Shown here piece by piece: positions 49,442 to 56,104 of a DNA stretch of 64,000 nucleotides (its first letter is position 1; each line of letters opens with the position of its first letter). The translations under genes were made by a program, and so were the position numbers. The notes under the pieces were generated by a model, which made no database searches, was not told the DNA's origin, and saw only the letters and a program-made list of their open reading frames with translations. Source of the stretch: Acidobacteriota bacterium (GTDB lineage: Bacteria; Acidobacteriota; Thermoanaerobaculia; Gp7-AA8); contig JAFATB010000014.1 in the NCBI GenBank assembly GCA_019244185.1, positions 160,001 through 224,000 on the forward strand, in the 5' to 3' direction.

Positions 49442-50875
49442 ATGACTCTCTTCCTCGTGATCTTCGGTGCTCTCGCGTTCGCGGCCGTCGTGGTTCTGGC
49501 CGTTCTTCTTCGCAGTCAAACCCTTCAGCGAAATCAACTGGTCGAGCGATTCCGCGGTGTCGTCGATGCGGATGCGGAACGCAAGCGCGTCCTCGCTGAG
49601 CTCGAACGCGAGCAAAACGCGGCGCGCTCTGAGACCGAGCGGCAGCGCGCCGAGGCCGCGGCGCAGCTCGCGTCGATCCGCAACCAGACCGCCTCGGATG
49701 CGCAACAACTGGCTGAGCTCCAGCGGAACATTCAGGGCCTGCGTGCGGAATTCGCGGCCCTCGATGAGGAGGCGAATCTCCAGTCGTTCGGCTTCTACAA
49801 ACCGCATTACGCGTTTGCGGACTCAGCGCACTACGCGGCAGAGCTGGAGCGCATTTGCGACGCGCAGAAAGAAATGCTGAAACAGAAGCGCGCCGCCGTC
49901 TGCCAAAGCGAGTGGACCGTGAACGGCAGCAAGGCCGAAGGTCGCAAGCAGGTGAATCAAACCCTCAAGTTGATGCTGCGCGCGTTCAATGGCGAATGCG
50001 ACGCGGCCATCGCCAAGGTCCGCTACAACAACGTCCACGTCATGGAAACGCGGATCAACAAAGCGTACGACGTCATCAACAGCCTCGCCGAGGTGCAGCG
50101 TTGCGACATCACGCGCGAGTACCGCGAGCTGAAGTTGCAGGAACTCCGGCTGGTGCACGAGTACGAGGAGAAGCTGCAGGAAGAAAAAGAAGAGCAGCGC
50201 CGGATCCGCGAGCAGATGCGCGACGACGAGATCGCGCAACGGGAGCTGGAGAAGGCGCGCCTCGACGCGGAGCGGGAAGAACAGCGTTACGAGAAGGCGC
50301 TCGCGAAGGCGCGGGAAGAAGCCGAGCGTGCGGTGGGCGCGAAACAGGAGAAGCTGCTGAGCGAGATCGACGCACTGCGGCAGCGGCTCGCGGAAGCACA
50401 GGCGAACAAGGAGCGTGCGATTGCGCGCGCGCAGATGACGCGTTCAGGGCACGTCTACGTGATCTCGAACGTCGGCTCTTTCGGTGAGCACGTCTACAAG
50501 ATCGGTATGACGCGGCGGCTCGATCCGATGGACCGCATCCGCGAGCTCGGCGACGCGTCCGTGCCTTTTCAGTTCGACGTGCACGCCGTCCTGTTCAGCG
50601 AAGATGCTCCGGCTCTCGAGAATCGGCTGCATCGCGCATTTCACCAGCGCCGCGTGAATCGCATCAATGAACGGAAAGAGTTTTTCCGCGCGACCATCGA
50701 CGAGATCATCACCACGGTCCAGCAGCATCACGGCGACGAGATCACGGTGACGCGTGCGGCGGAGGCGACCGAGTATCGCAAGACGCTCGCGCTGCTCGAA
50801 GCGGAACGTCAGCAGACTGCGACGCTGCCGATTCGCGAGGCCCCGGCGCCGGTGCGTTCCGTCGCCGCGGTCTGA
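49442..50875 (+). CDS. DUF4041 + T5orf172/GIY-YIG-like domain protein with N-terminal TM anchor
   Basis: TM, coiled coil, LMLRAFNGECD, EEQRRIREQMR, GHVYVISNVGSFGEHVYKIGMTRR, LGDASVPFQFDVHA, RKEFF. Confidence 0.9.
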   Translation: MTLFLVIFGALAFAAVVVLAVLLRSQTLQRNQLVERFRGVVDADAERKRVLAELEREQNAARSETERQRAEAAAQLASIRNQTASDAQQLAELQRNIQGLRAEFAALDEEANLQSFGFYKPHYAFADSAHYAAELERICDAQKEMLKQKRAAVCQSEWTVNGSKAEGRKQVNQTLKLMLRAFNGECDAAIAKVRYNNVHVMETRINKAYDVINSLAEVQRCDITREYRELKLQELRLVHEYEEKLQEEKEEQRRIREQMRDDEIAQRELEKARLDAEREEQRYEKALAKAREEAERAVGAKQEKLLSEIDALRQRLAEAQANKERAIARAQMTRSGHVYVISNVGSFGEHVYKIGMTRRLDPMDRIRELGDASVPFQFDVHAVLFSEDAPALENRLHRAFHQRRVNRINERKEFFRATIDEIITTVQQHHGDEITVTRAAEATEYRKTLALLEAERQQTATLPIREAPAPVRSVAAV

Positions 50876-50878
50876 CGC

Positions 50879-51475
50879 CTACGACACGATTTCCAGCTCC
50901 GCGACCGTCGAACGCAGCTCGCGCGGGAGCCAGCAGTACGGGCCGATTTGCGTGAAGCCGGCTTTGCGGAACGTGTTGCGGTAGAACGCGGCGGGACGGC
51001 GCATGAGGCCGTCGAGGTCGCCCACGATGTCGTCTTCTTTCGTGAGGACTTCGAGGAAGGCGAGGCCGTCGCATGCTTTCGCGATCGCGGCGATGCCGGG
51101 GCGGATGTCGCGCTCGGCGACGTAGTGCAGGACGTCGGAGCAGATGACGAGATCGTGGACACCGAGGTCGAGGGAGGGGAGCTCGTGGAAGGCGGCCTTG
51201 TGGATGTTGCGCGTGCGGCCGAAGCGCTCGACGGCGTAGTCGGAAGGATCGAGTCCGGTGTACTCGATGCGGCTGCGCAGCGCGCGGAGATGCGGGAGCC
51301 ACGCGCCTTCGCCGCAGCCGACGTCGAGCACGCTGCGCAGCGGGCGGCGCATCACGTACTCGGCCATGGCCACGGCGAGCGCCACCTTGCGGCGCACCTC
51401 GAGGTGCGAGTTCACGCGCGTGTCGGGGCGGTGGTACCAGCGTTCGAAATACGCGCGGTCGTACTCTTTGGGCAT
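50879..51475 (-). CDS. Class I SAM-dependent methyltransferase
   Basis: VLDVGCGEG motif I, GLDPS, DLVICSDVLHYV; start MPKEYDRAY. Confidence 0.9.
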   Translation of the reverse strand: MPKEYDRAYFERWYHRPDTRVNSHLEVRRKVALAVAMAEYVMRRPLRSVLDVGCGEGAWLPHLRALRSRIEYTGLDPSDYAVERFGRTRNIHKAAFHELPSLDLGVHDLVICSDVLHYVAERDIRPGIAAIAKACDGLAFLEVLTKEDDIVGDLDGLMRRPAAFYRNTFRKAGFTQIGPYCWLPRELRSTVAELEIVS

Positions 51476-51489
51476 CGGCGCGAATCGTA

Positions 51490-52377
51490 TTACGGCTGCC
51501 TGGTCGCGTAGGCGACGAGGCGGAACTGGCGGATCGGCGCGGCGCTCGGCGTGAGGCACGTGGCGTACGCCGACTCGACCGCGGTGTAGTGCTCGAGCGT
51601 GACCTCGTGGATCGTGCCGCTGTTGTCGCGCAGCTCGATGCGCGTGTGGCCGTCGACGAGCGACTCGCGGCTGACGAAGTGCAGGGCGTCGCGCGCGTGC
51701 AGGCTCGTGGCGCGGCGGACGAACGTCTCCGCCGCCTGTACCGGACGCGAGACGGAGCTGCGCCCGCGATACGACGGCAGGAGGATCTCGTCGCGCGCGA
51801 TCGAGGCTACGAGCTCGTTCGCCTGCGACGGCTCGACCGGGCCGTAGTAGAGACCCCACGGCAGCACGAGCGCGTTCGCGGCGAAGCGATCGCCGCCGAT
51901 GTGCGAGCACTGCCAGACGTCGATGCCGTCGTAGTGGCGCAGCGCGTCGTAGAGCGGATAGCCGCGGCGGCCGCAACAGGAGTCGTGCTGGCCGTGCGTG
52001 CAGACGAGGACGAGCGGCTTCGCGACCGGCGCGATCTCATCGCGCAGCGCCTCGAACGAGAAGGTCGCCAGCTCGTCGATCGAGTCGAGGTCGCGCATCG
52101 CGACGCCGGGATGGGGCGTGCTGCGCGCGACGTAGACGCGGATCGGGCCGAGGCATTCGTTGCGGCGGCGGATGAAGACGACGCGGCTGCGCTGGATCGC
52201 GCGCGTGGCGCGGAGCAGCGCGGTGCGGGCCGCGGGCGGCATCGCCGCGTCGGACATCGGCTCGCGTCCCCAGGTGATCGGCAGTTCGACGAGGATCCAG
52301 AGATCGACGCGCGCGGCGCTGGCGATGTTGTCGTCGCCGCGCAACCGCGCGGCGTCGGAGCAGAACGGGCGCCTCAC
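51490..52377 (-). CDS. Sucrase-ferredoxin family (Apd1/Aim32-like thioredoxin-fold [2Fe-2S]) protein
   Basis: FCS N-terminus, WILVELPITWG, LVCTHGQHDSCCGRRG, WQCSHIGGDRFAAN, YYG, YRGRS; GTG overlaps the upstream TGA. Confidence 0.9.
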   Translation of the reverse strand: MRRPFCSDAARLRGDDNIASAARVDLWILVELPITWGREPMSDAAMPPAARTALLRATRAIQRSRVVFIRRRNECLGPIRVYVARSTPHPGVAMRDLDSIDELATFSFEALRDEIAPVAKPLVLVCTHGQHDSCCGRRGYPLYDALRHYDGIDVWQCSHIGGDRFAANALVLPWGLYYGPVEPSQANELVASIARDEILLPSYRGRSSVSRPVQAAETFVRRATSLHARDALHFVSRESLVDGHTRIELRDNSGTIHEVTLEHYTAVESAYATCLTPSAAPIRQFRLVAYATRQP

Positions 52378-53603
52378 GCGTCCGGCTCGCCCGTCACGTT
52401 GACGAGCCCCTGCCGCGCGAGGTCCGCGACGAACTGCTGCACGGCGTCGGGCGCGAGCGCATCGCCGGCCGCGGTGCAAAGCTCGGCGACCGTCGCGGGA
52501 CCGCGCGCGAGCGTGTGCAGCAGCGGCTCGGTCGCGGCCGCGAACTGCCACGCGCGGCCGTTCGCGTCGAAGCGGATCGCGTCGGCGTCGCGGACGATGT
52601 GCAGTTCGCGCGGTGCGGCGAGCATCACGCGCGCATCGAGCGGCAGCGCCGTCGCATCGGCAACGCTCCACGGCAGATTCGCCCAGCCGCGCGAACGCGC
52701 GCGTACGTCGTGATGCGCGAAGTAGCGTGCGAGCAGCTCGTCGTCGAGCTGGTCGACGAGTTGGCGGCGCAGTTTCGCGAACTGCTCCCTGCGTTCGTCA
52801 TCGGATGCGAAGCGTCGCAGCGGCGCGCGAAAGTCGGTCGACGCGCGCAGCTGATCGCCGAGCCAGTGCACGAGATTGACGCCCGTGCGCTGGTGGATGC
52901 CGAACGTGAGATGCAGCGTGACCTCGCCGACGCCCGACGCCTCGTGCCACCAGCCGCGCGGGATGTAGAGCGCGTCGCCGTCTTCGAGCAATCCTTCCCA
53001 TACGACCTTGTCGGGCGCGGTCTTGTTCGGCGCGATGTCGTCTTTCAGCGGATGCGGACGTCCGCCCTCGTACACGCGCCAGTACTTTTTCCCGTAGACC
53101 TGCAGCACCACGACGTCGTGCGTGTCGCAGTGGCGGTTGAAGCCCTGCTGCTCGCGCCATCCCGCGTACAGATTCACCTGCACGGCTTCATGCAGCACCC
53201 GCTCGAAATCCTCGGCCAGCCGCATCACGCCATCGGCCATGTCGTCGACCGCGTCGATGATCAGCGTGTAGCCGTCGCGCAGCCGTTCGGCGAGCTTCTC
53301 CGGCACGACGAACGGCACGCGTCCGCCGTCGTAGCGGAGATACGCGTTCTTCGGCGCGAACTCTCCCTTGCGCACGAGGCGCAGGCGCGGCGGCTCGAGG
53401 CGGTGCTTCTGCAGCATCGCATTCACTTCATCCCACGAGAGCAGCGACTGGAAGCGCCCGCGCTCGCCGGGGAGATGCGCGAACGTGCGGCCCCAGACGC
53501 GCGTGAGGAAGTCATCGGCGCCGTTCGCGCCGATGACTTCCGTGAAACTCGTGCCGCGTGACGCGACGTCAGGCGTTGTCGGTGCCGTCGGAGTCACCGC
53601 CAT
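52374..53603 (-). CDS. JmjC/Cupin_4 2OG-Fe(II) oxygenase (YcfD/NO66-like) with C-terminal winged helix
   Basis: QVNLY, FNRHCDTHDVVVLQVYGKKYW (HxD), LYIPRGWWHEA (distal His), HLTFG; the nearest in-frame starts (ATG 53603 / GTG 53597) overlap the upstream peptide gene, so the start is uncertain. Confidence 0.9.
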   Translation of the reverse strand: MAVTPTAPTTPDVASRGTSFTEVIGANGADDFLTRVWGRTFAHLPGERGRFQSLLSWDEVNAMLQKHRLEPPRLRLVRKGEFAPKNAYLRYDGGRVPFVVPEKLAERLRDGYTLIIDAVDDMADGVMRLAEDFERVLHEAVQVNLYAGWREQQGFNRHCDTHDVVVLQVYGKKYWRVYEGGRPHPLKDDIAPNKTAPDKVVWEGLLEDGDALYIPRGWWHEASGVGEVTLHLTFGIHQRTGVNLVHWLGDQLRASTDFRAPLRRFASDDERREQFAKLRRQLVDQLDDELLARYFAHHDVRARSRGWANLPWSVADATALPLDARVMLAAPRELHIVRDADAIRFDANGRAWQFAAATEPLLHTLARGPATVAELCTAAGDALAPDAVQQFVADLARQGLVNVTGEPDA

Positions 53604-53871
53604 CGGTGCCGTCGTCGTCTCCTTCTTCGTCATCGTCGGCCGCGTCGCCGTCTTCGCCGTCGGTGCCGTCACCGTCGGTGCCGTCGCCTTCGCCGGCGTC
53701 GCCGTCTTCACCGTCGGTGCCGTCGCCGTCCGTGCCGTCGGCGTCGCCGCCGTCGGTGCCATCCGAATCGCCGCCCGGCTTCTTGCCGGGCGCGTCGGAA
53801 CCAGCGGTGGCGGCGAGCATCACGGCATCCAAATCGCGAATCTCATCGATCAACTGCATCTCTTCGCTCAT
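53569..53871 (-). CDS. 100-aa Asp/Gly-rich repeat peptide (putative RiPP-like precursor)
   Basis: GGAGG RBS 5 nt before ATG; N-terminal leader-like MSEEMQLIDEIRDLDAVMLAATAG..., then core with seven DGTD repeats. Confidence 0.85.
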   Translation of the reverse strand: MSEEMQLIDEIRDLDAVMLAATAGSDAPGKKPGGDSDGTDGGDADGTDGDGTDGEDGDAGEGDGTDGDGTDGEDGDAADDDEEGDDDGTDGGDSDGTDNA

Positions 53872-53902
53872 GCAAACCTCCAAATCAGATGAACCCGACG
53901 CG

Positions 53903-53936
53903 TGCAGTGCTCGGGCCAAATGCAAAGGACGGCCCG
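53903..53936 (-). promoter_or_regulatory. Tandem sigma54-like -24/-12 elements upstream of the peptide gene
   Basis: TTGGCCCGAGCACTGCA (53919-53903) and CGGGCCGTCCTTTGCA (53936-53921), both GG-N10-GC. Confidence 0.6.
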
Positions 53937-53973
53937 GGGGCCGCCCTTTTCCGACTGCACCGCGCGCGACATT

Positions 53974-54342
53974 CTAGAGGGTTGCCCGCGCCACCGCGTG
54001 TGAATTCGGCGTGCGGCCGTAGCGCTGCGTGGCCCAGCCGACGATCGCGCCGACGGCGCTGCCGGGAAGCATGACTTCCCAGAAATACTTGCCGCCCTGC
54101 ATGGCCACGATGCCGTACGCGAGCAGCGCGCCGACGGCGAGTCCGAACGCGATTCCGGCGGCGACGTTCTGCACCTTGCGCGCGAACCATCCCGCGGCGA
54201 TGCCGGCGATGATGCCTTTGAAGGTGGAGCCGATGACGATGCCGATGATGGCCGCGCGCACCTCCGGCGTGAACCACGCCGTCATTCCGTCGAGCGCGCC
54301 GAGGATGGCGCCGAGCACGATTCCGAGCAGTACTTTGTTCAT
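53974..54342 (-). CDS. Small 4-TM membrane protein
   Basis: Gly-rich hydrophobic helices, AGGAGG RBS. Confidence 0.8.
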   Translation of the reverse strand: MNKVLLGIVLGAILGALDGMTAWFTPEVRAAIIGIVIGSTFKGIIAGIAAGWFARKVQNVAAGIAFGLAVGALLAYGIVAMQGGKYFWEVMLPGSAVGAIVGWATQRYGRTPNSHAVARATL

Positions 54343-54399
54343 GGTGATTTCCTCCTGGCTACCTGTTCAACGCCGCCGCGAAATCCTTTAACGAGCGCG

Positions 54400-55296
54400 C
54401 TAACGATGCACCGCGATGAGGACGATGACGCGCATGATGAGGTACGCGACGACGACGGCGACGAGCGCGCGGTTGCGCGCGAGCCAGCGTCCCGCGCGTT
54501 CGAAAGCGTTCTCGCGATACGCGGCGAGCGGCGCGCCGTCGAGGTAGCGGACGAGGTCTGCCGCGAGCTCGCCGGCATTCGCGTAACGCGCATCGCGATC
54601 GGCGGCGGTGGCCTTGTCGATGATTGCGCGCAGGAGTTTCGGCGGCGCGACGAGGAGCGCGCGCAGCATCGCGCCGAGGGCGTAGACGTCGGCGCGCGCG
54701 TCGACCGGCTCGCCGCGTTCCTGTTCCGGCGCCATGAAGCCGCGCGTGCCGGCGAGGACGCGCGTGTTTGCGTCGACGCGTGATTCGTCGACGGTGCGAG
54801 CGACGCCCCAGTCCATCACCAGCACTTCGCCGAATGTACCGGTCATGACGTTCTGCGGTTTGAGATCGCAGTGCACGACGCCGCGCGCGTGCGCCAGCGC
54901 GACCGCCTCGCAGACGCGAAGCAGGATGCGCAGGAGCTCGGTCGTGCCGCACGCGAGCTCGTCGAGGCGCTGCCCGCGCACGAGCTTCATCGCGTAATAG
55001 ATGCGGCCGTCCGCGAGCGTGCCCGCGTCATGGAGCGGCACGATTCCCGGGTGTTCGAGCCGCGCCACGACGCGCGCCTCCGCGCGCATGCGCTCCGCCG
55101 CCGCGGGACTCGCGGTTTCCGTCGCGAGGACTTTGATGGCGACGCGCCGATCGAGCTCGCGATCGTGCGCCTCGTAGACGACGCCCATGCCGCCGCGCCC
55201 GAGCTCGCGCACGAGGTCGTAGCGCGTGCCGGAAAAGTCGGGGAGCTCGGCCGCGTCGCGAAGGCGCCCGACGGCGGCGTCGGAGAGCCAGGTCAT
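54400..55296 (-). CDS. Hanks-type Ser/Thr protein kinase with single C-terminal TM
   Basis: LGRGGMGVVY, VAIK, HCDLKPQN, DWG, GTRGFMAPEQ, DVYALG; start MTWLSD at 55296. Confidence 0.93.
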   Translation of the reverse strand: MTWLSDAAVGRLRDAAELPDFSGTRYDLVRELGRGGMGVVYEAHDRELDRRVAIKVLATETASPAAAERMRAEARVVARLEHPGIVPLHDAGTLADGRIYYAMKLVRGQRLDELACGTTELLRILLRVCEAVALAHARGVVHCDLKPQNVMTGTFGEVLVMDWGVARTVDESRVDANTRVLAGTRGFMAPEQERGEPVDARADVYALGAMLRALLVAPPKLLRAIIDKATAADRDARYANAGELAADLVRYLDGAPLAAYRENAFERAGRWLARNRALVAVVVAYLIMRVIVLIAVHR

Positions 55297-55424
55297 GGGG
55301 CGGCTCCGGGTGGGGAGGGGGAGGGGGAGGGGGCGTGCGTGGCGGCGCGCCGCGTGCCGGAAAAGTCGGGGAGCTCCGCCGCATCGCGAAGGCGCGCGAC
55401 GGCGGCGTCGGAGAGCCAGGTCAT
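55223..55424. repeat. Direct duplication (about 74 nt) of the kinase 5' end, separated by a (GGGGGA)n tract
   Basis: 55223-55296 vs 55351-55424 differ at 3 positions. Confidence 0.88.
55293..55424 (-). CDS. 43-aa mini-ORF made from the duplicated kinase N-terminus
   Basis: MTWLSDAAVARLRDAAELPDFSGTRRAATHAPSPSPSPPGAAP*; ATGA overlap with sigma stop and ATGA overlap with kinase start. Confidence 0.45.
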   Translation of the reverse strand: MTWLSDAAVARLRDAAELPDFSGTRRAATHAPSPSPSPPGAAP

Positions 55425-56104
55425 GCATCCACTCCGAGAAGCGCGCGCACTTCCGCGCGGAACTCGCGCTCGGAGGCGGTGGCGTCGCGCAAGACGTCGA
55501 GCACGTGCTCACGAAAGTGGCGGCGCATCGCGGCGAGGCGGTTCGTCACCGTGGTCTCGCTCATGCCGAAGCGGGCGCCGAGCTCGCGGTACGACAGGCG
55601 CGCGTCGTCGAGGTCGTACGCCTGGAAGAGCGCGAAGTCGTCGTCGCGCGCGCCGGCGCGCAGTCGCTCGACGGCCACGCTGAACACGCTTCGCGCCCAT
55701 TCGCGCTGAAAGTACTCCTCGGGCGATCCGCCGCGGTCGTGCTCGCGCGCGAGCTCGGCTTCCGCCTCATCGAACGGCAGGTCCGCCGCGCCGCCGCCGC
55801 GTTTGAGGCGGCGCTCCGCCTTCATCTCATTGGCGAGATGGCGATCGAAGAGCAGGCGCAGGAACGTGCGGAAGCTCGCCTTCGCGGTGTCGTACGACGC
55901 GAGCGCGTTCTTCTCGAGCACGTATGCGAGAAAGCTCTGCGTGCGGTCTTCGGCATCGTCGCGGCGGTGGGCGATGCGCGCGTACTTGTAGAGCGGACGC
56001 CAGTAGATCGAGACCACCGCATCGAGGGCGCGCGCCCGTTCGAAAGCGTCAGTGCTGCCGAGGGCTTCGACCACGCTCCGGCGCGTCGTGGGGAAGAGGG
56101 ACAT
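55421..56104 (-). CDS. ECF sigma factor of the kinase-associated type
   Basis: FPTTRRS N-terminus, YWRPLY, DAEDRTQSF, KASFRTFL, LKRGGG, SYRELGARFG; directly upstream of the kinase. Confidence 0.9.
   Translation of the reverse strand: MSLFPTTRRSVVEALGSTDAFERARALDAVVSIYWRPLYKYARIAHRRDDAEDRTQSFLAYVLEKNALASYDTAKASFRTFLRLLFDRHLANEMKAERRLKRGGGAADLPFDEAEAELAREHDRGGSPEEYFQREWARSVFSVAVERLRAGARDDDFALFQAYDLDDARLSYRELGARFGMSETTVTNRLAAMRRHFREHVLDVLRDATASEREFRAEVRALLGVDA

Follow-up and report, generated by a model that had tools for sequence, protein, structure and literature searches.

A three-gene acidobacterial cassette joining an acidic repeat peptide, a JmjC oxygenase and a Suc_Fer-like protein: a candidate system for modification of a dedicated ribosomal peptide

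A 64,000-nucleotide stretch of the genome of an uncultured soil acidobacterium, a member of Thermoanaerobaculia by the names given to near-identical proteins (contig JAFATB010000014.1, positions 160,001 to 224,000; hereafter the window, in whose positions all coordinates are given) carries four minus-strand open reading frames (ORFs) in the same direction, encoding a 100-residue acidic repeat peptide, a JmjC-domain oxygenase, a Suc_Fer-like protein and a methyltransferase (Table 1). The first three constitute a cassette that is found again in many soil bacteria and, judging from sequence comparison, probably makes an undescribed modified, perhaps metal-binding, peptide. An earlier sequence-only reading had proposed four co-oriented genes starting with a 100-residue peptide that has a GGAGG ribosome-binding site (RBS), a 34-residue N-terminus and a 66-residue Asp/Gly core, followed by coupling of the sucrase-ferredoxin gene through GTGA, a methyltransferase 14 nt further on and a TACGAT box at 51489-51484, and all of these features are present in the DNA.

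The G+C content of the region ranges from 62 to 75%, and spurious ORFs crowd both strands. The JmjC frame is open from 53762, where its extension consists of the peptide repeat read out of frame (TAPT...). The only in-frame canonical starts 5' of the conserved JmjC N-terminus are ATG 53603, which sits inside the peptide gene with an overlap of 35 nt, and GTG 53597. Because homologues begin at about residue 17 of the model that starts at ATG 53603, the start must be one of these two if a canonical codon is used, in agreement with the earlier proposal that the gene begins inside the 3' end of the peptide gene. The GTG start of the Suc_Fer-like gene (52377) overlaps the JmjC TGA as GTGA, and the methyltransferase ATG (51475) lies 14 nt past the Suc_Fer-like TAA. 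A promoter scan of 50700-54400 returned 0 promoter-like sites, and a terminator scan of the same interval found a single terminator-like site, which lies within the repeat but on the plus strand, and did not call the hairpin at 53924..53949. This hairpin is no better than shuffles (71-nt stretch, z -1.18, not significant); as a terminator it would give the cassette its own transcription start, which is a weak suggestion.

Table 1. Features of the cassette and of the DNA next to it, in window positions.
Feature	Positions	Strand	Basis or detail
GGAGG Shine-Dalgarno sequence of the peptide gene	53877..53881	-	5 nt 5' of ATG; sequence
Whole precursor-like peptide gene, 100 aa + TGA	53569..53871	-	ATG 53871, TGA 53571-53569
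Peptide residues 1-34, non-repetitive N-terminal leader (MSEEMQLIDEIRDLD...)	53770..53871	-	Aligned with 14 orthologues
Peptide residues 35-100, Asp/Gly/Thr repeat core	53572..53769	-	Seven DG[TS]D motifs, DGTDNA end
JmjC_2 / ROX-type Fe(II)/2-oxoglutarate oxygenase (very probably), 409 aa	52374..53603	-	Pfam; H158, D160, H220, K173
RRE-like winged-helix C-terminal domain of the JmjC protein (predicted)	52377..52652	-	Predicted models, Foldseek and VIA matches
Suc_Fer-like protein (thioredoxin-like ferredoxin family), 295 aa	51490..52377	-	Pfam, conservation, co-occurrence with JmjC
Class I S-adenosylmethionine (SAM) methyltransferase	50879..51475	-	Methyltransf_12/23/25/11 matches
11-bp G+C-rich hairpin 3' of the stop of the upstream transmembrane-protein gene	53924..53949	-	Fold; possible terminator, weak

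The peptide contains 30 Asp and 24 Gly residues and has a net charge of -35, and its core is made up of 26 D, 20 G, 7 T, 5 A, 5 E, 2 S and 1 N. It matched no Pfam or NCBIfam family, its Atlas model is disordered (pLDDT 0.33) and its Atlas neighbors are unnamed small proteins, which we take as a lead only. A peptide ORF lies 5' of the orthologous JmjC gene in 15 of 16 and in 4 of 4 loci from other species of the genus, in most cases with the same TGGAGGT context before its ATG. In these peptides the leader is conserved, the GDxDGTD repeats vary in number and the ...DGTDNA end hardly changes. The spacing between the peptide and JmjC genes varies across the genus from -34 to +168 nt, with start/stop overlaps, and the order of peptide before JmjC is invariant wherever the peptide is seen.

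The JmjC protein matched Pfam JmjC_2 (PF08007) with an E value of 1.3e-24. The HxD...H triad is formed by 'HCD' (H158, D160) together with H220, and these three residues and K173 are invariant among 70 relatives of 29-67% identity, with N144 and Y146 nearly so. K173 lies 15 residues past the first histidine (H158), a spacing that we take to be the 2-oxoglutarate (2OG)-binding position of NO66 and MINA53 (Lys) and of YcfD (Arg). The AlphaFold2 model (predicted local distance difference test (pLDDT) 93.6, predicted template modeling score 0.90) contains the three-domain architecture of the ribosomal oxygenases (ROX), namely a JmjC domain, a helical dimerization domain and a C-terminal winged helix. 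Human NO66 was matched with a Foldseek E value of 2.9e-24 and a VIA Z of 26.7 (375 aligned residues, spanning 15-409 of the model), followed by human MINA53, Escherichia coli YcfD/RoxA and the YcfD-like protein of Rhodothermus at Z 22.5, 20.5 and 19.8; the YcfD match at Z 19.8 spans residues 17-405. Bacillus subtilis YxbC ranked below the ROX enzymes, and FIH, JMJD5 and TYW5 were far lower. On the basis of these near-full-length matches of the model, the protein is very probably a ROX-type, 2OG-dependent enzyme, with an identity to ROX enzymes of 16-22%. NCBIfam holds no family for it, nor for the peptide or the Suc_Fer-like protein.

The third protein matched Pfam PF06999 (E 1e-22; 81.6 bits against a gathering cutoff of 34.9), and its Atlas neighbors are all Suc_Fer-like. 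Its comparison with PDB sequences gave nothing meaningful, the best hit being to antibody chains at E 0.59. Across 56 sequences the conserved residues are C6, C126-x-H128, D132, C134/C135, H159-x3-D163 and C274. The family binds a [2Fe-2S] cluster through CX8C...HX3H, as described for Apd1/Aim32 (PMC8482512). The CX8C motif (CTHGQHDSC, C126...C135) is present in 54 of 55 Acidobacteriota members; in the same proportion, the HX3H position reads HX3D (SHxGGD, as in SHIGGD). The earlier assignment to the Apd1/Aim32 type thus stands for the family and the cysteine motif and fails for the second histidine. Relative to Apd1/Aim32 there are extra conserved cysteines at the N-terminus (C6), beside CX8C (C134/C135) and near the C-terminus (C274), and cluster binding is putative. 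The protein is dedicated to a JmjC/peptide pair, and genomes of the genus contain no further copy of its gene.

A survey of 35 genomes of the genus (JmjC orthologue at E <= 1e-100, Suc_Fer-like at E <= 1e-5) placed both genes in the same 23, always adjacent on one contig, and both were missing from the same 12. None of the 5 other genera of the family yielded an orthologue of the JmjC gene, and a sample of 300 other Acidobacteriota gave merely 4 distant matches of 31-33% identity. This patchy presence indicates an accessory unit. The peptide, JmjC and Suc_Fer-like genes form a conserved functional unit, as had been proposed from the sequence, and the unit recurs in Acidobacteriota classes and in Actinomycetes. 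The methyltransferase, which the title of the sequence-only reading had counted into the system and its text had doubted, was rejected as a member because its orthologue is genus-wide (34 of 35 genomes, among them all 12 that lack the cassette) and lies on contigs other than the cassette's where both exist, with flanks that share nothing with the window. It is downstream of the cassette in 0 of 16 orthologous loci, and is a genus-core gene that the cassette merely happens to adjoin here. The TACGAT box lies 9 nt before its ATG; were this a -10 box, the mRNA would have almost no leader.

Other members of the JmjC family occur in the genus. Distant paralogues of about 30% identity (L018-L025, some in tandem) have no acidic peptide or Suc_Fer-like gene alongside and were set aside; tandem copies at G004:C219, G016:C53 and G012:C19 (L020 and neighbors) are about 28-32% identical to the window's protein. 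One genus genome (G337:C14:313055-315113) and L036 carry a divergent second form of the cassette, with a JmjC protein 51% and a Suc_Fer-like protein 43% identical. L036 is an unclassified Acidobacteriota metagenome-assembled genome (MAG) with a Ser/Asp/Asn-rich peptide core.

A HMMER search of 1.84 billion representatives returned 7955 relatives of the JmjC protein, 771 of them at E <= 1e-30 and many of full length with 31-44% identity. A scan in which each species was represented by one genome gave 578 relatives, and loci were taken for the best 80 of these with 4-kb flanks. Those labeled Acidobacteriota belong to Thermoanaerobaculia, Pyrinomonadaceae/Blastocatellia, Bryobacteraceae, Acidobacteriaceae and unclassified members, and the other 20 come from Kitasatospora, Streptomyces, Actinomadura, Actinosynnema, proteobacteria, Planctomycetota and Longimicrobiales. 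A Suc_Fer-like gene lies 3' of the JmjC gene in 54 of the 56 Acidobacteriota loci with downstream DNA, whereas this was so in 1 of 19 others. Similarly, where at least 330 nt of upstream DNA was available, at least four acidic repeats were found 5' of JmjC in 53 of 58 Acidobacteriota loci and in 0 of 20 others. Together with the 19 of 20 genus loci, these counts uphold the proposed co-occurrence of acidic repeat peptides with this JmjC clade. ORF clustering over the 80 loci identified nothing conserved beyond JmjC, Suc_Fer-like and peptide, and no conserved leader protease or exporter, which agrees with the earlier remark that none is adjacent. An apparent upstream cluster in 32 loci proved to be the peptide ORF itself, taken as a long stop-to-stop frame, and a TonB-receptor-like gene (L041) considered as a metallophore lead was dropped, being upstream in only 3 loci (L041, L053 and L064).

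Outside Acidobacteriota, some loci have an aldo/keto reductase gene downstream in place of Suc_Fer-like. A sister subfamily from Kitasatospora (L088, L090-L101), Noviherbaspirillum (L080), Actinomadura (L096) and L114 shows the order of a short non-repeat peptide ending in ...SDGG(S/G)TGR(T/S)D(T/S)ND, a JmjC gene, an aldo/keto reductase-like gene and a family-less protein gene, and no Suc_Fer-like gene was found in these loci. Additionally, a JmjC relative was present in 93 of 301 sampled Actinomycetes genomes. Among 30 actinomycete loci, 13 encode (DGGA)n-type acidic repeat peptides, of which 8 have a Suc_Fer-like gene, and 12 encode short peptides with a single DxDG[ST]D near the C-terminus, of which 0 have one. 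A quick tree of 94 JmjC proteins, from which every second Pyrinomonadaceae locus, truncated loci, context-less loci and two further rows were excluded, placed the window in a 22-row clade (Shimodaira-Hasegawa-like approximate likelihood ratio test 100) that belongs to an Acidobacteriota group in which most rows are Suc_Fer-positive (support 83). The (DGGA)n clade stands apart from it (support 100), and the Suc_Fer-like state needs 8 changes on the tree. The actinomycete form resembles the window cassette in gene order and families, and differs in its (DGGA)n rather than DxDG[TS]D repeats, its leader and its JmjC clade. By gene content, long acidic repeat cores go together with Suc_Fer-like in two distant JmjC clades, and Suc_Fer-like is missing where the core is short or non-acidic. 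Its tie to repeat-acidic cores, and not to JmjC as such, argues for a substrate-linked role.

The peptides encoded at these loci are united by their N-terminus rather than by their core. A leader motif, [SDE]GL[LFIV]x with an acidic or hydrophobic alternation after it, was found in 47 of 58 Acidobacteriota peptides and in small upstream ORFs kept at 12 of the 20 other loci, with examples such as SGLLLSVEPL (Pyrinomonadaceae), SGLIQDVRDLD (genus) and GDGLLVARAKV (Kitasatospora). It is common to peptides with very different cores, among them DxDG[TS]D repeats, (DGGA)n, DPIVED repeats, W/D/G-rich sequences and single DNDGTD motifs, and Asp is the sole residue present in all core types. Conservation of a leader motif over differing cores is, at the level of the aligned peptides, the behavior of a recognition sequence in an enzyme-recognized substrate, and the leader/core logic of a RiPP, a peptide made on ribosomes and modified after translation, is plausible here. 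Two Pyrinomonadaceae MAGs (L053 and L064) combine DPIVED-type repeats with an SGLLLSVEPL-type leader and a downstream Suc_Fer-like gene. A Bryobacteraceae MAG (L068:3722-3958) has an SGLLLG leader and a Trp/Asp/Gly-rich core (WGWWGW...DGWDG repeats) 5' of JmjC; the Suc_Fer-like gene is absent there, and an ABC transporter gene converges on JmjC from downstream. The L068 peptide would be a different product of the same recognition system.

A candidate for the partner of this leader is the C-terminal domain of the oxygenase. In the full model, strands at 325-328, 337-339, 342-347 and 350-355 are followed by helices at 356-367, 372-379 and 385-397, and the domain folded alone has the same topology (pLDDT 85.5). 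As modeled, this order of strands and then three helices is that of the RiPP recognition element (RRE). VIA matches to solved RREs ranged over Z 8.3-5.9 (ThcOx 8.3, TigE 8.2, TbiB1 with leader 8.0, PqqD 7.8, MibB 7.4, LynD 7.2, the PbtF RRE 7.1, CteB 6.9, TbtB 6.7, McbB 6.5, MccB 6.3 and NisB 5.9, with lasso B1 within this range). Ordinary winged helix-turn-helix regulators reached Z 5.3-6.2 with fewer aligned residues. The ROX winged helices of MINA53 (Z 10.6) and NO66 (8.5) equal or exceed the RREs, and Foldseek gave the same ROX/RRE mix, with RRE matches at E 3e-3 to 0.14. The second-best structural match of the domain is PDB 8hkr, the C-terminal part of a mycobacterial methyltransferase (Z 8.9), which hints that an RRE-like module may be more widely attached to protein-modifying enzymes. 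PqqD_rel_X of NCBIfam reached only E 0.018 on the oxygenase C-terminus (16 bits against a cutoff of 35), below threshold. Thus, the RiPP-like logic of the sequence-only reading was borne out in the conserved leader, variable core and RRE topology, and it found no counterpart in a curated PqqD/RRE model match.

A predicted complex of the peptide with the JmjC protein scored 0.60, against 0.00 for the best of 3 controls. The verdict on this scale is weak support: 58 of 80 solved complexes and 2 of 110 mismatched pairs attained the mark used for such predictions, but only 7 of the 80 solved complexes, and both passing mismatches, attained it with a score of 0.60 or lower. The runs agree in at least 25% of contacts and the partner pLDDT was 36-38, and we count the prediction as a small plus only for leader binding, with which the conserved leader motif is consistent.

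Taken together, we consider the odds somewhat in favor of a self-contained, horizontally patchy three-gene cassette that modifies a dedicated ribosomal peptide by leader-guided hydroxylation. The 100-residue product would be the dedicated substrate, whose N-terminal leader would be bound by the RRE-like C-terminal winged helix of the oxygenase. Such binding would feed the DxDG[TS]D repeats into the Fe(II)/2OG JmjC site for repeated side-chain hydroxylation. JmjC hydroxylases modify Lys, His, Asn and Asp at carbons of the side chain (PMC11575548). Since Asp is among these residues and occurs in all cores, the hydroxylated residue is probably Asp, the likeliest target being its beta-carbon. The co-translated Suc_Fer-like Fe-S protein would be an obligatory partner specific to the repeat-acidic form; it could keep the iron enzyme or the iron supply working, for instance by re-reduction, beside a chelating polyanion, or it could carry out a second, oxidative step on hydroxylated residues. 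The full-length modified peptide may be the product because no protease or exporter is conserved, and a polyvalent metal binder, intracellular or released, is plausible. The interpretation of the sequence-only reading is partly supported, with Asp hydroxylation, metal chelation and metal release by the ferredoxin standing as proposals.

Several observations weigh against this explanation. The modification itself is a proposal, and its target is deduced only from what the cores share. The RRE-like fold does not prove leader binding, because YcfD, NO66 and MINA53 have the same C-terminal fold; these enzymes have ribosomal-protein substrates, and to our knowledge no leader peptide is known for them. 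Sequence models cannot decide between a ROX winged helix, PqqD and MarR for this domain, since a Pfam test of 45 members gave ROXA-like_wH in 9, PqqD in 8 (taken at E up to 1) and MarR_2 in 8, all below cutoff. The complex prediction gives no more than weak support, and the peptide is modeled as disordered. The leader encoded in the window does not carry the motif in its 'SGL' form, and locus L009 has no peptide ORF in the 720 nt 5' of JmjC and a TAA inside JmjC (L009, like the positive locus L017, comes from a genome marked unpublished, and both are within the genus counts). The Suc_Fer-like gene was undetected in 5 of 13 actinomycete (DGGA)n loci and beside the L068 core, and it is thus not required everywhere. 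The counted loci are for the most part kin, and six locus pairs across the genus and wider collections encode identical proteins, so that the counts overstate independent support. Finally, the lack of a conserved leader protease or exporter in the 80 loci is unlike most RiPP clusters; some RiPP systems rely on unlinked proteases, and this lack therefore does not exclude the class.

Comparison with known systems supports individual parts of the proposal. BipG of the biphenomycin pathway is a JmjC enzyme that catalyzes gamma-hydroxylation of Orn in a RiPP (PMC12707348), and CzlI of the curacozole pathway is one that converts Phe to Tyr (PMC11575548). As described in these sources, both are Fe(II)/2OG enzymes of JmjC type encoded beside the precursor peptide gene and acting on that peptide, as proposed for the cassette. 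However, their clusters encode several enzymes, with cyclases and proteases among them, as well as transporters, and in a short core they alter a single residue, whereas the cassette has three genes, a 66-residue polyanionic repeat core and an Fe-S-type partner; the likeness is one of description. YxbC is the top structural match reported for CzlI, and ranks below the ROX enzymes for the window's protein. PF08007-RRE fusions and bacterial JmjC homologues in RiPP-like contexts have been described (Bregman et al. 2025, PMC12710340), and the passage of that paper on JmjC-RRE proteins names neither an acidic repeat peptide nor a Suc_Fer-like partner. In the window's protein, the C-terminal domain is structurally like ThcOx, TigE, TbiB1, PqqD and other RREs, but equally like the ROX winged helix; its sequence matches to PqqD models are subthreshold, and its leader binding is putative.

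Hydroxylation of Asp has its own precedents. Fe(II)/2OG-dependent beta-hydroxylation of Asp in ribosomal peptides is carried out by CinX and by the alpha-ketoglutarate-dependent HEXXH beta-hydroxylases (PMC12636437, PMC11575548, PMC12186529), and in the SmaO/SmaX cascade Asp is converted to beta-hydroxy-Asp and then to aminomalonate, with a second iron enzyme processing the hydroxy-Asp (PMC12186529). In the accounts cited, these enzymes have folds unrelated to JmjC/ROX, the second enzyme is an HD-domain protein and not Suc_Fer-like, and single Asp residues are modified rather than long repeats. SmaO/SmaX may serve as a precedent for a second step by the Suc_Fer-like protein in logic only.

A broader form of the proposal, which we regard as possible but doubtful, would make the cassette one branch of an extensive class of ribosomal peptides that spans phyla and has as yet no name. 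A ROX-type JmjC enzyme with an RRE-like domain would iteratively beta-hydroxylate Asp of DxDG[TS]D or (DGGA)n repeats, and the HX3D Suc_Fer-like protein would then oxidize hydroxy-Asp by a SmaO/SmaX-like logic or redox-cycle iron held by the product. The product would be a gene-encoded polyvalent metallophore or metal store of soil Acidobacteriota and Actinomycetota. If so, the ROX winged helix and the RRE of RiPP enzymes would be the same peptide-binding module.

The strongest competitor, which we consider unlikely, is that the JmjC protein is an oxygenase of a ribosomal or other cellular protein in the sense of YcfD/NO66, and that the acidic peptide is not its substrate but serves as a regulator, a decoy or a chaperone, one example being a polyanionic mimic to hold the enzyme or its basic substrate. 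Its nearest full-length solved structures are indeed NO66, MINA53 and YcfD, with which it shares the three-domain build, JmjC_2, the HxD...H triad and the basic residue 15 positions past the first histidine; its C-terminal fold is common to ROX enzymes, its homologues carry the Joint Genome Institute label 'ribosomal protein L16 Arg81 hydroxylase', and no protease or exporter is conserved. The sequence-only reading had set a grouping with YcfD against a peptide substrate, and such a grouping does exist in structure. However, the identity to ROX enzymes is just 16-22%, and an accessory gene (carried by 23 of the genus's 35 genomes and by none of the 5 other genera, with 4 distant matches among 300 other Acidobacteriota) would be odd for a ribosome modifier. 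A dedicated small peptide gene stands 5' of window-type JmjC genes, and in the repeat-acidic form a Suc_Fer-like gene stands 3' of them; we know of neither a dedicated peptide gene nor a Suc_Fer-like gene for ROX enzymes. The leader motif is kept while the core changes, a pattern of enzyme-recognized substrates, and characterized JmjC relatives in gene clusters modify an adjacent peptide. These points argue for the adjacent peptide, and not a ribosomal protein, as the probable substrate.

More improbable still is that the acidic repeats belong to a small Ca2+/metal-binding or stress protein with a function of its own, merely co-regulated with the JmjC and Suc_Fer-like genes and unmodified by their products. 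Acidic repeats of DxDG type resemble calcium-binding loops and the peptide is predicted to be disordered, as this would allow, but the close spacing and start/stop overlaps throughout the genus, the invariant order in all loci with the peptide, the leader motif common to very different cores and the RRE-like domain on the enzyme all speak for a tie to the oxygenase. That the peptide ORF is a chance frame in G+C-rich repeat DNA or a frameshifted JmjC N-terminus is hardly credible: long spurious ORFs are abundant in this 68% G+C DNA and the JmjC frame is open through the repeat, yet the ORF comes with a stop and a strong, conserved RBS of its own, its leader and its C-terminus are conserved, up to 168 nt separate it from JmjC in relatives, conservation is seen at the protein level across classes despite differing DNA, and homologous JmjC proteins begin past the repeat, so that this account is contradicted by the comparative data.

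The proposal of a cassette for leader-guided hydroxylation thus builds on what is already known, namely JmjC enzymes in RiPP pathways and Asp beta-hydroxylation by other iron enzymes. No published account of a ROX-type JmjC enzyme with a polyanionic repeat peptide and a Suc_Fer-like protein was found in a search that did not extend to supplements. The new elements are the acidobacterial branch, the finding that JmjC and Suc_Fer-like are strictly inherited together and that the methyltransferase does not belong with them, the RRE-like fold along with a leader motif held in common, the HX3D variant and the tie between Suc_Fer-like and long acidic cores. The cassette is near-universal within several Acidobacteriota clades carrying the JmjC gene. 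If the proposal is correct, it would represent a widespread ribosomal route to poly-hydroxylated, polyanionic peptides, add a substrate class for JmjC/ROX enzymes, provide a concrete partner for the large and functionally obscure bacterial Suc_Fer-like family and connect the ROX winged helix with the RRE by which natural-product enzymes bind leaders. In soils, where these uncultured groups abound, the product could then bear on how iron, calcium or rare earths are handled.

The genes flanking the cassette were also considered. On the plus strand, 49442-50875 encodes a 477-residue protein with DUF4041 and T5orf172/MUG113 (GIY-YIG-like) domains that is convergent on the methyltransferase gene. 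Genes of this type are frequent in mobile or phage-related DNA, and together with the patchy cassette this one suggests a variable region. Upstream of the cassette on the minus strand, 53974-54342 encodes a 122-residue glycine-rich four-helix membrane protein of no family, which was rejected as a member because it occurs in the window genome only and in 0 of 16 orthologous loci. Further upstream on the same strand are a Ser/Thr protein kinase (54400-55512) and an ECF-type (extracytoplasmic function) sigma factor (55421-56104); as the two listed ORFs overlap, the kinase start is probably further downstream.

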